Notes under the pieces: generated by a model | What the model was told of the DNA's origin: nothing | Seen by the model: only the letters and a program-made list of their open reading frames with translations | Databases searched by the model: none | Source: Escherichia coli | GTDB taxonomy: Bacteria; Pseudomonadota; Gammaproteobacteria; Enterobacterales; Enterobacteriaceae | Length of the DNA: 64,000 bases | Assembly (NCBI RefSeq): GCF_044324875.1 | Contig: NZ_CP172185.1 | Reading direction: 5' to 3' (one strand) | In this document: positions 51,012 to 52,904 of the stretch, piece by piece | How positions within the stretch are numbered: position 1 is the first letter of the stretch | Layout: every line of letters starts with the position of its first letter | Program-made: the position numbers and the translations under genes

Positions 51012-51683
51012 TTAGGGCTGATTTGCTGTATAGCGCACGAACGCCGGACGTTCCGAGGCCACCGCGTCCGCCCAGCGCGTTGGCTCCGGCAGACGATAGC
51101 CTTTCATGCAGCGTTGTACCCACGCCAGCGCGCTGTCTACGCTGACCCGATGGCCGGTAGCGATAAACAACGGGTTACAGCGCGCTTTGCTGCGCCAGAC
51201 CCAGGCCAGCTGCTCGCCTTTATCCATCAGCGGTGCCAGCGCGCCCGGTTCACTGGAGAGCGGTTCGAATTTACCGCAGAGCCGTTTTTTCGCCACGCCT
51301 ACCGTTGGCACATCCACCAGCAAACCAAAGTGGCTGGCGACGCCAAGACGGCGAGGATGCGAGATCCCGTGACCATCGACAAACACTAAATCCGGCTTTT
51401 GCGACAGCATCTCCCACGCTGCCAGCAGCGCAGGATATTCGCGGAAGGAGAGAAAACCTGGAATGTAAGGCATGGTGGTGGCGATGCGGGCCACTTTATG
51501 CTCCACCAGCTCAAGCGAGGGGTATTTCAGCAGCACCATCGCCGCTCGCGTCACTTCTCCGCCCTGCTCAAACCCGACATCGGCTCCGGCGATCAGATCC
51601 GGCGGATCTTTATCGAGTCGATCCTCGCGGATCACAGAAGAAGCCAGTTCAATTTGTTGAGCGCGTAATGACGCGAGATCCAT
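51012..51683 (-). CDS. nfi: Endonuclease V Nfi (223 aa)
   Basis: [52 protein letters not shown]...; AAGGAG RBS 5 nt upstream. Confidence 0.95.
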
Positions 51684-51696
51684 AATCGCTCCTTAG

Positions 51697-51837
51697 AGCC
51701 TGGTCCACCAGGCGTAATTGTTGAAGGCAGTTTGAGGCCGGGCAGTGCTCAAAATCCTCACGTACTACGTGTACGCTCCGGTTTTTCCGCGCTGTCCGGC
51801 CTCAAAATGGCAAATAAAATAGCCTGATGGACCAGGC
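51697..51837. mobile_element. 141-bp MITE-like palindromic element with 17-bp terminal inverted repeats (AGCCTGGTCCACCAGGC / AGCCTGGTCCATCAGGC) and flanking CTTAG direct repeat, inserted between the hemE stop and the nfi RBS
   Basis: TIRs (16/17 identical) and the 5-bp flanking direct repeat (51692-51696 and 51838-51842) read directly from the sequence; a nested inner inverted repeat GAGGCCGGGCAG / CTGTCCGGCCTC is also present; no ORF. Confidence 0.55.
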
Positions 51838-51839
51838 TC

Positions 51840-52904
51840 TTAGCGGTGATACTGTTCAGATAACCGATGCACTGCCTCCACAAACACGCCAGCATGTTCT
51901 GGCGGCACATCCTGATGAATGCCGTGACCAAGGTTAAAGACATGACCTTCACCGTGACCGAAACCTGCAAGTATAGTCGCTACTTCTTCTTCAATGCGGG
52001 CTGGCGGCGCGTACAGCATCGACGGATCCATATTGCCCTGCAACGCGACTTTATTGCCCACGCGGCGGCGCGCATCGGCGATGTCCGTTGTCCAGTCGAG
52101 GCCCAGCGCATCGCAACCGGTTTCTGCCATCGCTTCCAGCCACTGTCCGCCGCCTTTGGTAAACAGCGTGACCGGTACGCGGCGACCGTCGTTTTCACGC
52201 AGTAAACCATCAACAATTTTATGCATGTAATAGAGCGAGAACTGTTGATAATCGCGCCCGGTAAGCACACCGCCCCAGGTGTCGAAAATCATCACTGCCT
52301 GAGCACCGGCTTTAATCTGCGCATTCAGATACAGAGTGACGCTTTTCGCCAGTTTATCGAGCAGAGCGTGCAGCGCCTGCGGATCGGCATACATCATTTT
52401 TTTGATCACGGTGAACGCTTTGCTGCTGCCGCCTTCCACCATGTAGGTCGCCAGCGTCCACGGGCTGCCGGAAAAACCAATCAGCGGCACTTCGCCTTTC
52501 AGTTCGCGACGAATGGTACGCACCACGTTCATCACGTAACCCAGCTCATCTTCCGGGTCCGGAATTGGCAGTTTATCGACGTCAGCTTTGCAGGTGACTG
52601 GCGAGGTAAAACGCGGACCTTCTCCGGCTTCAAAATAGAGCCCTAACCCCATCGCGTCCGGCACGGTGAGGATATCGGAAAAGAGGATCGCCGCATCCAG
52701 CGGGTAGCGGCGCAGCGGTTGCAAAGTCACTTCGCACGCCAGCTCGGCGTTTTTGCACAGCGACATAAAATCGCCCGCCTGGGCGCGCGTGGCTTTATAT
52801 TCCGGTAGATAGCGACCCGCCTGGCGCATCATCCATACTGGAGTGACATCAACGGGCTGGCGCAGCAGCGCCCGCAGATAACGATCGTTTTTAAGTTCGG
52901 TCAT
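51840..52904 (-). CDS. hemE: Uroporphyrinogen decarboxylase HemE (354 aa)
   Basis: [50 protein letters not shown]... Confidence 0.97.

Follow-up and report, generated by a model that had tools for sequence, protein, structure and literature searches.

ERIC/IRU elements are imperfect palindromes (~127 bp) that lie in transcribed enterobacterial intergenic regions, are polymorphic among strains and form a long RNA hairpin, all of which applies also to the element described here, which lies between hemE and nfi in an Escherichia coli genome (contig NZ_CP172185.1; "the window" is the whole 64,000-nt stretch of DNA that we analysed). The two nevertheless lack sequence similarity, both by BLAST against the ERIC copy in K-12 NarS (L143) and by eye, and they differ in apex and target site. 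REP/BIME sequences are extragenic palindromes often placed just 3' of stop codons, like members of the hemE-nfi family, but their G+C-rich units are 35-40 nt long, begin with a GTAG head and are mobilised by RAYT transposases, and the hemE-nfi family has no similarity to them; the original prediction that the element is neither ERIC nor REP thus stands. In 2015, Liang, Rudd and Deutscher reportedly described REPs as able to stabilise upstream mRNA or to affect translation termination. Correia/NEMIS elements of Neisseria and other bacterial MITEs resemble the hemE-nfi element in size (100-150 bp), in their terminal inverted repeats (TIRs) and short TA-containing target duplications, and in being co-transcribed with their neighbours as long hairpins, yet Correia/NEMIS is unrelated in sequence, and the hemE-nfi family differs in its variable termini, its conserved apex and loops, and the lack of a known transposase.

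Closest in description are the RSA repeats of Blattner-era annotation (Bachellier & Hofnung 1996, "BEE95 = RSA"), which, as far as titles and table entries describe them, are likewise ~150 bp long, intergenic, dispersed and present in few K-12 copies; the likeness is one of description rather than alignment, and the hemE-nfi copy has an inverted core. Against this background, we are confident that the hemE-nfi gap holds a mobile repeat, non-coding and predicted to form a hairpin, from a family dispersed among enterobacteria, which inserted at CTTAG, later had its core flipped and most likely has a mild effect on expression.

Anatomy and origin of the hemE-nfi insertion

The hemE and nfi open reading frames are separated by 156 nt, and re-deriving the anatomy of this gap from the sequence bore out the earlier proposal that a single TIR-bounded, CTTAG-flanked element nearly fills it and that a nested inner inverted repeat (11 bp, perfect) lies within. 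The open reading frame list holds no plausible ORF within the 142 bp of the element. Its features are as follows.

51012-51683, minus strand: nfi coding sequence (open reading frame list and RefSeq annotation)
51684-51696, minus strand: Shine-Dalgarno region of nfi, CTAAGGAGCGATT-ATG
51692-51696: left CTTAG target copy (CTTAG occurs once in the empty allele), also within the nfi Shine-Dalgarno region
51697-51838, plus strand: palindromic element, 142 bp (filled minus empty allele, 147 bp; family alignment)
51697-51713: left TIR, AGCCTGGTCCACCAGGC, a small palindrome in itself
51714-51730, plus strand: 5' asymmetric internal-loop segment, GTAATTGTTGAAGGCAG, near-invariant across family copies (alignment)
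51731-51741: left arm of the inner inverted repeat, TTTGAGGCCGG, 11 bp, perfect
51742-51795, minus strand: core, 54 bp, reverse-complemented relative to the usual allele (alignment)
51757-51779, minus strand: apical hairpin motif, GGAGCGTAC-ACGTA-GTACGTGAG; also found at the tip of repeats in distant phyla
51782-51786, plus strand: T5 run, inside the hairpin core
51796-51806: right arm of the inner inverted repeat, CCGGCCTCAAA, 11 bp, perfect
51807-51821, plus strand: 3' asymmetric internal-loop segment, ATGGCAAATAAAATA, near-invariant across copies; sets the orientation of the outer element (alignment)
51811-51838, minus strand: predicted terminator-like site, AGCCUGGUCCAUCAGGCU then AUUUUAUUUG (consensus scan; mRNA strand, directly 3' of the hemE stop)
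51822-51838: right TIR, reverse complement AGCCTGGTCCATCAGGC, 16/17 complementary to the left TIR
51839-51843: right CTTAG target copy, holding the hemE stop codon; the Citrobacter uxaC-uxaA copy is flanked by the same CTTAG pair
51840-52904, minus strand: hemE coding sequence (open reading frame list and RefSeq annotation of the identical region), with its TAA stop at 51840-51842 inside the right-hand CTTAG

The left TIR and left CTTAG lie where they had first been placed, and the 16/17 match between the TIRs stood, while the right-hand positions had been one base off: the right CTTAG is not at 51838-51842, and the span previously given for the right TIR (51821-51837) is the direct-repeat register rather than the true inverted partner. 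The element consequently measures 142 bp and not 141 bp, since 142 bp plus the five duplicated bases make up the exact 147-bp length difference between filled and empty alleles. An alternative delimitation, GAGCC...GGCTC, makes the element 144 bp long, with TTA as a 3-bp duplication.

Comparison with K-12 and other E. coli upheld the view of a MITE-like insertion: the 17-bp TIRs are present, CTTAG is doubled, and empty alleles exist in K-12 and most of the species. The K-12 junction reads GGAGTGATT, and the empty junction that had been predicted, ...CACCGCTAAGGAGCGATTATG..., occurs in three E. coli contigs (L144, L150 and L153). Among 5,426 complete E. coli genomes, ~94%, K-12 included, have the empty 9-nt hemE-TAA-GGAG-nfi junction and ~310 (~6%) are filled, 307 of them with the canonical filled allele; the hemE-type core was found at 315 places in 314 genomes. 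An exact HupA look-up returned 10 contigs, all E. coli-like, with the junction empty in eight and filled in two. At a second locus, uxaC-uxaA of Citrobacter, an insertion shows the same CTTAG duplication where K-12 has the single-copy empty site, and the presence of CTTAG around two independent insertions indicates that the element targets this pentamer, which on the coding strand is C-TAA-G at a gene end. The glnA-glnL copy has no clean duplication on its left side.

We therefore picture a MITE-like element that would have entered the CTTAG in which the hemE stop codon overlaps the nfi Shine-Dalgarno region, doubling it; the stop codon and the ribosome-binding site were both kept because CTTAG was duplicated. 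The insertion would then mark a minority E. coli lineage, with the majority, including K-12, retaining the tightly coupled empty junction. Conversely, the 156-bp spacer could be ancestral, most E. coli having lost it by precise CTTAG-CTTAG deletion through palindrome-stimulated slippage. Palindromes between short direct repeats are known deletion hotspots, and the filled alleles have had time to diverge and lie on differing flanking haplotypes (Ec-U9-2 versus FDAARGOS_448), but the filled state is confined to ~6% of genomes, the direct repeat itself records a past entry of the element into CTTAG, the same signature stands at the unrelated Citrobacter locus where E. coli is empty, and the family is dispersed, with glnA-glnL polymorphic too. 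We thus consider an ancestral spacer improbable and retain the insertion.

With respect to mobility, the element has what characterises a MITE, being non-coding and shorter than 300 bp, with TIRs, a target duplication with empty alleles, and multiple dispersed copies, and a transposition enzyme is presumed to have moved it. No near-identical sister copy was found among the 314 genomes with the hemE-type core (315 places), and there is thus no sign of recent transposition. No arm pair enclosing an ORF, such as an autonomous partner would have, occurred in ~600 kb of Nitrospirales loci; one distant arm pair considered for this role was a small apex-less palindrome beside ordinary genes. The family alignment has the terminal repeats as the least conserved part and the internal loops and apex as the most conserved. 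Such least-conserved termini are atypical of a classical DDE-type MITE.

A dispersed family, probably RSA

BLAST supported the earlier reading by recovering further copies elsewhere in the genome, in the form of diverged family members at other loci. These copies (70-90% identical) are present in 5,425 of the 5,426 complete E. coli genomes, and the family occupies six distinct enterobacterial loci. In K-12, copies spanning 143-151 bp lie at cysP-ucpA, pheM-pheS and glrK-qseG (three loci verified); the seven BLAST "places" (E<=1e-5) of K-12-type genomes correspond to ~3-4 loci because a palindrome matches on both strands. The glnA-glnL copy is carried by 993 genomes. The orientation of K-12 copies relative to replication is consistent in four of five, which is not significant.

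Two small RNAs bear on the extent of the family. The extra 145 nt of O111-type GlnZ are a copy of this repeat, which corrects the description of that RNA: the additional segment belongs to the family of the hemE-nfi element. The "REP" of K-12 GlnZ is a separate insertion, with no match in L009, and the narK 3' insertion (NarS) is an ERIC without a BLAST match to the family.

The suggestion that the element might be novel did not hold, given a dispersed family in essentially all E. coli including K-12, a probable catalogue entry as RSA and a weak kinship to Rfam sX9. In an old K-12 record, six RSA repeats are annotated with a length of 150/151 bp (PMC5172473, Table 1), and a reference title cited in PMC3751351 calls RSA repeats dispersed enterobacterial intergenic elements. 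The RSA unit length of 150-152 bp fits, as 142 bp with 5-bp flanks gives 147-152 bp, and the family is probably the RSA of early K-12 annotation, matched by size, copy number and description alone. The current K-12 record NC_000913.3 has no RSA features. Being absent from K-12, the hemE-nfi copy itself cannot be among the six annotated K-12 copies.

Hairpin, termination and the flipped core

Structurally, RNA folding predicts the expected long hairpin, the mRNA-sense 191 nt reaching -89.2 kcal/mol as opposed to -54.7 +/- 4.4 kcal/mol for shuffles (z = -7.8; 0/200 shuffles as good), with z-scores of -7.8 and -9.5 for the two core orientations. Compensatory changes among copies affect 12 of 46 pairs in the family alignment. 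If co-transcribed, the element would add a very stable long hairpin to hemE-nfi mRNA, at whose base the hemE stop and the nfi Shine-Dalgarno region, 147 nt apart, would meet. A K-12 copy is transcribed: Term-seq maps an RNA 3' end to 1798987 (PMC7815308, supplementary file 1), where the pheM-pheS copy has its 3' edge.

The effect of the hairpin on nfi is probably mild. Occlusion of the nfi Shine-Dalgarno region was rejected because the predicted cost of opening it is about equal in the filled and empty alleles (4.1 versus 3.7 kcal/mol). Another possibility is that the main role of the element is that of an intercistronic intrinsic terminator or attenuator uncoupling nfi from hemE. On the mRNA strand, 1 nt 3' of the hemE stop, a 6-7-bp G+C hairpin is followed by a U-rich tract matching the consensus scan (AUUUUAUUUG), and the same orientation behind the upstream gene is seen in four of the six enterobacterial copies. 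Yet this hairpin has little stability (-9.7 kcal/mol, z = -1.7), the equivalent glrK-qseG copy of K-12 has no RNA 3' end mapped by Term-seq (PMC7815308), and in the same data ucpA uses its own terminator upstream of the element. The T5 run, earlier put forward as the terminator, lies inside the hairpin core and on the non-transcribed strand in this allele, and filled strains keep nfi intact and conserved, with the same protein accession as K-12. A main role in termination is thus unlikely in our view, though the weak hairpin and its U-rich tract may still give some termination or shield the RNA 3' end as part of a mild effect of the mobile repeat.

The core itself departs from all other copies, an inversion that the first reading of the sequence had overlooked. 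In the alignment, the 54-bp core matches the reverse-complemented core of the 312 hemE-nfi genomes of usual orientation base for base, with no other change, and its direction with respect to the outer arms is opposite to that in every other family copy. Only two of 314 genomes have the flipped core, this one and one other, and they share a local haplotype (five differences in 3 kb). Strains CFIAFB20140388 and AF39 have the flipped allele, whereas strain 042 has the canonical filled one. The flip would have occurred after the insertion, in the common ancestor of the two strains, and its likely cause would be recombination, or template switching during replication, between the two perfect 11-bp arms of the inner repeat; we infer a rare one-off mutation rather than a switch.

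A programmed phase-variation switch that toggles hemE-nfi coupling would call on the same repeats, which bracket the inverted segment precisely, and a flip does decide which apex strand and which T5/A5 strand enters the mRNA. Against such a switch stand the two genomes of a single local haplotype, the imperfect and never flipped inner repeats of other family copies, and the near-identical predicted fold and equal Shine-Dalgarno accessibility of both orientations. Moreover, known recombinase-driven invertible segments are far longer than 54 bp. We accordingly give a switch very little credence and keep to the one-off flip.

An apex shared with distant bacteria and phage

From a wider perspective, the apex GGAGCGTAC-N5-GTACGTGAG is likewise found at the tip of multi-copy palindromic repeats from Mesorhizobium, Nitrospirales, Scalindua, Terriglobia, Boseaceae and beta-proteobacteria; it recurs in Rhizobiales, Nitrospirales and other phyla as well as in P2-like phage and Rfam sX9. 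All 50 viral-contig matches were apex-capped palindromic repeats. Because an exact E. coli pattern served as the query for these matches, the conservation of its 18 bases is partly by construction. The search of the literature for the apex sequence returned primers only.

The Rfam model sX9 (RF02228), described as a 75-nt Xanthomonas RNA, aligns to the hemE-nfi core (GUAC-N5-GUAC-RCUCCGGUUYCUCCGCGC), covering only half of the element hairpin, and the strand follows core orientation, so that the model matches the two E. coli alleles on opposite strands, as inversion predicts. The scores are 30.6 bits for this allele and 31.7 for the canonical one, below the gathering threshold of 44, while a Polaromonas relative that shares the extended core exceeds that threshold at 46.6 bits. 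Owing to its multiple copies, sX9 ranks among the most often annotated "sRNAs" (PMC9029176). Rfam matched only sX9, with none for the alpha-proteobacterial, Nitrospirales, Terriglobia or Scalindua types, and it gave no hammerhead in Mesorhizobium variants with CTGATGAG. A likeness of the apex or arms to the sarcin-ricin loop, K-turn, group II intron domain 5, MS2 operator, R388 nic site or 5S rRNA was considered and set aside, being partial or inconsistent across copies.

These observations raise the possibility that, instead of a selfish MITE, the element is a structured nucleic acid with a function of its own, its apex and internal loops forming the recognition site of a widely conserved factor, its placement after stop codons acting on translation termination, mRNA 3' ends or decay, and its relative being the Xanthomonas sX9 RNA. 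The stems covary around an invariant apex and invariant internal loops, the two apex-closing base pairs covary (CC/GG versus GC/GC) in all 22 representatives, and G-U cells far outnumber A-C cells in the enterobacterial alignment. In several taxa the strand with GGAGCGUAC has the better fold of the two, its lead over the complement being 8 kcal/mol in Mesorhizobium, 21 in Terriglobia and 27 in Boseaceae, and the repeats directly abut stop codons beyond chance (14/24 and 17/51, P ~1e-23). The recurrence of the apex across distant phyla and viral contigs and the sX9 scores point the same way. However, part of the apex conservation is built in by the search pattern, the better-folding strand is usually not the one read from the adjacent gene, and the E. 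coli copies have no fold asymmetry between strands and lie either way round with respect to host transcription (4 versus 2). Strains also differ in presence or absence without evident consequence, two genomes have kept the core inversion, and sX9 has no known function (PMC3300014). We regard such a functional role as possible though doubtful, and the mobile repeat as the better account of this locus.

Evolutionarily, the apex 5'-SC GGA GCGUAC N4-7 GUACGU GA GS A-3' may, tentatively, define an unrecognised cross-phylum superfamily of mobile hairpins that insert, or are kept, at TAA/TAG beside stop codons. Its members may include the RSA-type repeats of E. coli, Xanthomonas sX9, families of Rhizobiales, Nitrospirales, Planctomycetota and Acidobacteriota, and the P2-like phage copies. 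If true, a single mobilising enzyme or host factor that reads the apical hairpin would have to be common to all of them.

The insertion at hemE-nfi is in itself ordinary; what was unexpected is the flipped core, the recurrence of the apex in very distant bacteria and the stop-codon adjacency of those repeats. For E. coli, a strain-specific insertion parts the hemE stop from the nfi ribosome-binding site at one of the tightest junctions of the region, and the natural empty, filled and flipped alleles offer material for testing the effects of a long hairpin on translational coupling and read-through. For the family, an old and neglected E. coli repeat class is linked to the Rfam "sRNA" sX9, and the same apex on stop-codon-adjacent repeats of distant phyla and phages points to a shared, undescribed mechanism.

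The hemE-nfi insertion and its target site

The minus strand of the window carries nudC, hemE, nfi, yjaG and hupA in that order (ORF list and RefSeq annotation of an identical region), with a 156-nt gap between hemE and nfi, exactly as first reported, that holds a palindromic element with the following features.

Features of the hemE-nfi junction in window coordinates (genes from the ORF list and RefSeq annotation)
51012-51683, minus strand: nfi
51692-51696: left target copy, CTTAG
51697-51838: palindromic element, 142 bp
51697-51713 and 51822-51838: terminal inverted repeats, 17 bp, 16/17 matching
51731-51741 and 51796-51806: inner inverted repeats, perfect over 11 bp
51742-51795: core, 54 bp, enclosed by the inner inverted repeats
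51839-51843: right target copy, CTTAG
51840-52904, minus strand: hemE

The anatomy given in the original prediction stands apart from the element's length (142 bp, not 141) and its right-hand coordinates, which were one base off, and the mRNA-sense strand does fold into the single long hairpin that had been proposed (−89.2 kcal/mol, z = −7.8 against shuffles). When the junction was compared by megablast with 5,426 complete E. coli genomes, most proved to have a site 147 bp shorter; this empty allele reads ...CACCGCTAAGGAGTGATTATG... in K-12 and ...TAAGGAGCGATTATG... in other strains, the latter being exactly the junction foreseen. The canonical filled allele, with the core in its usual orientation, was present in 307 of these genomes, strains 042 and PCN033 among them, and the hemE-type core in 314 (~5.8%). 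The hemE TAA comes from the right CTTAG and the left CTTAG falls within the nfi Shine-Dalgarno (CTAAGGAG, mRNA strand); both gene signals thus survive insertion, because target duplication yields two CTTAG copies. The filled allele of strain Ec-U9-2 has K-12-like hemE flanks and a left arm (GGTTCAACAGGC, L003:447-463, L-numbers denoting loci retrieved for comparison) that matches the cysP-ucpA copy and not its own right arm, a pattern suggestive of gene conversion among copies or of recombination.

A Citrobacter werkmanii copy, located between uxaC and uxaA, is also flanked by direct CTTAG repeats, and its empty counterpart in K-12 has one CTTAG. Since both sites pair a CTTAG-flanked element with a single-CTTAG empty site, these independent insertions share a 5-bp signature, which at each includes, on the strand of the gene, a TAA stop codon. 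Another placing of the boundaries shortens the duplication to TTA (3 bp) and has the element end G...C, a reading that gives the glrK-qseG copy a perfect TTA/TTA pair; judged from sequence, the recognised site is C-TTA-G under either. Polymorphism extends to a third site, glnA-glnL, where 993 of the 5,426 genomes have the element and O157 and Nissle types lack it, being 145 bp shorter; its right junction matches (TTTAG) and its left one is degenerate. The hemE-nfi insertion polymorphism is genuine but ordinary, and the repeat behind it belongs to a kind already known from enterobacteria.

A dispersed enterobacterial family and a flipped core

Further copies, which the original reading had proposed to look for, were found by a sensitive BLAST of the element in 5,425 of 5,426 E. 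coli genomes, as relatives diverged to 70-90% identity. Since the palindrome matches on both strands, the median of 5 'places' per genome is an over-count and stands for about three loci. E. coli copies lie at cysP-ucpA, pheM-pheS, glrK(qseE)-qseG, glnA-glnL and hemE-nfi, the first three of them present in K-12 MG1655. All family copies share an architecture of terminal arm, loop GCGTAATTGT and inner stem, then a core of ACAGCGCGGAGAAACC-GGAGCGTAC-N5-GTACGTGAG-GATTTCGAGCACTGCCC, followed by inner stem, loop GGCAAATAAAATAGCC and terminal arm. In an alignment of 11 copies, 12 of the 46 predicted pairs retained pairing via changes on both sides, and conservation was lowest in the terminal arms, the internal loops and apex (the hairpin tip) being almost invariant. 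By these sequence criteria, the element belongs to a dispersed family and is not new. Very probably this is the 'RSA' class, an old repeat class to which we liken it by size, copy number and description, not by sequence: Table 1 of PMC5172473 gives six RSA repeats (150/151 bp) as annotated in an early K-12 record, and the title of a 1996 note cited in PMC3751351 terms RSA 'dispersed enterobacterial intergenic elements'.

The extra sequence of 'O111-type' GlnZ, described as a 98-nt insertion with flanking AGGUUCAAA repeats (PMC9731577), is a 145-bp family copy at glnA-glnL (L008:1497-1641 versus L154); the 'REP' insertion of K-12 GlnZ differs from it in sequence. NarS is a second 3' untranslated region sRNA with a palindromic repeat, being lengthened in E. 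coli by a 170-nt ERIC/IRU insertion (K-12 narK 3' end, L143:1838-2021). This ERIC copy has no match to the family, which rules out ERIC as its identity, and the family is not REP.

Compared with every other filled allele, the window has its 54-bp core exactly reverse-complemented and the element otherwise unchanged, and every other family copy, across four genera, has the opposite core orientation relative to the asymmetric outer loops. Among the 314 genomes with a hemE-type core, only two have the flipped form (NZ_CP076709.1 and NZ_OZ547136.1); they differ at 5 bases in the 3 kb round the element, with divergence growing further out, and the simplest history for the pair is one event, then recombination. 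The core may have been inverted by recombination or template switching across the inner arms, which fits with the perfect inner inverted repeat being unique to the hemE-nfi copy among family members. A programmed switch of core orientation is unlikely.

RNA ends and hemE-nfi expression

Canonical and flipped alleles have nearly the same predicted fold, and occlusion of the nfi Shine-Dalgarno is not supported, since its predicted exposure costs 4.1 kcal/mol in filled alleles versus 3.7 in the empty allele. One nucleotide past the hemE stop, on the mRNA strand, the terminal repeat yields a small, weak hairpin (−9.7 kcal/mol) followed by AUUUUAUUUG. K-12 Term-seq (PMC7815308) places an RNA 3' end at 1798987, which coincides exactly with the 3' edge of the pheM-pheS copy (L141:2486-2632) and is 45 nt upstream of pheS; an RNA thus ends at this copy, after the pheM attenuator and before pheS. 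For the glrK-qseG copy, the same data contain no RNA 3' end at the corresponding hairpin, and the ucpA RNA ends at a terminator of its own that lies just ahead of the element. From these ends, the element is transcribed and can act as an RNA-end marker, but they do not demonstrate strong termination. The direct overlap of the hemE stop with the Shine-Dalgarno is lost in sequence in the filled allele. The hairpin would keep the two side by side, and a ribosome that halts on the hemE stop would need to open the outer stem, which adjoins the Shine-Dalgarno.

A wider apex family next to stop codons

Scanning one genome per species for the exact apex pattern GGAGCGTAC-N3-7-GTACGTGAG, whose 18 searched bases are identical in all matches by design of the scan, matched at least 120 loci, where ~43 single chance matches are expected in the scanned collection; the matches listed stop short of Escherichia. 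They are palindromic repeats present in multiple copies, 120-150 bp long and with the motif at the hairpin tip: >60 copies in one Nitrospirales MAG (metagenome-assembled genome), >25 in Mesorhizobium sp. CA8, and others in Boseaceae, Asticcacaulis, Scalindua, Terriglobia, Binatota, Polaromonas, Rhodoferax, Yersinia, Photorhabdus and Citrobacter (two MAG sets are from one study and possibly mis-binned). Outside the searched bases, two apex-closing pairs covary as CC/GG or GC/GC in 22 of 22 representatives; an unpaired A comes next in 21 of the 22. On viral contigs, all 50 of 50 apex matches share the architecture. A near-identical enterobacterial-type copy occurs in P2-like (pro)phages, at the junction of the terminase endonuclease subunit and head-completion genes (L171:5150-5520; ~20 other viral contigs, including L157, L168 and L170; 17975-18340 in the P2-like Yersinia phage vB_YenM_42.18), making phages a possible vehicle of spread from host to host.

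In Rfam, no family matches the apex repeats except sX9, a 75-nt RNA with no known function (PMC3300014) that is among the most often annotated 'sRNAs' (PMC9029176). The Xanthomonas sX9 model scores 46.6 bits on a Polaromonas copy (gathering score 44 bits) and ~31 bits on E. coli copies, on the plus strand in the window and the minus strand in the canonical allele, as predicted from the inverted core. A 55-bp palindrome in the Nitrospirales MAG (L059:1850-1905) has the family's outer arms without the apex module, which suggests that apex and arms are separable modules. Some copies in Mesorhizobium sp. CA8 (L090, L095, L108) have the left arm replaced by a segment with CTGATGAGGGCTTCGGCC...GCGAAGG; it resembles a hammerhead ribozyme by look, and an Rfam search of it found no ribozyme.

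Considering ORFs of at least 100 codons, the stop of a convergent ORF lies 2-5 nt from one end of 14 of the 24 Mesorhizobium copies (L088-L137), and that of an upstream ORF at the other end of six; for the Nitrospirales MAG (L026-L084), an ORF stop lies at one end in 17/51 copies and at the other in 0/51. Against a random expectation of <1%, P is ~1e-23 and ~1e-25, respectively. Repeat flanks in both are mainly TA, TAG or TAA, and the geometry is that of hemE-nfi (window 51838-51843) and uxaC-uxaA, namely gene, stop codon, then element in antisense. This adjacency could reflect a stop-containing target plus selection against insertions in genes, or it could reflect a function at translation termination; in several taxa, the better-folding strand is usually not the one transcribed from the adjacent gene. 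This shared-apex family of stop-codon-adjacent hairpin elements appears to be without earlier description, and the interest of the finding lies in the window's precisely inverted core and in the link to so broad a family.
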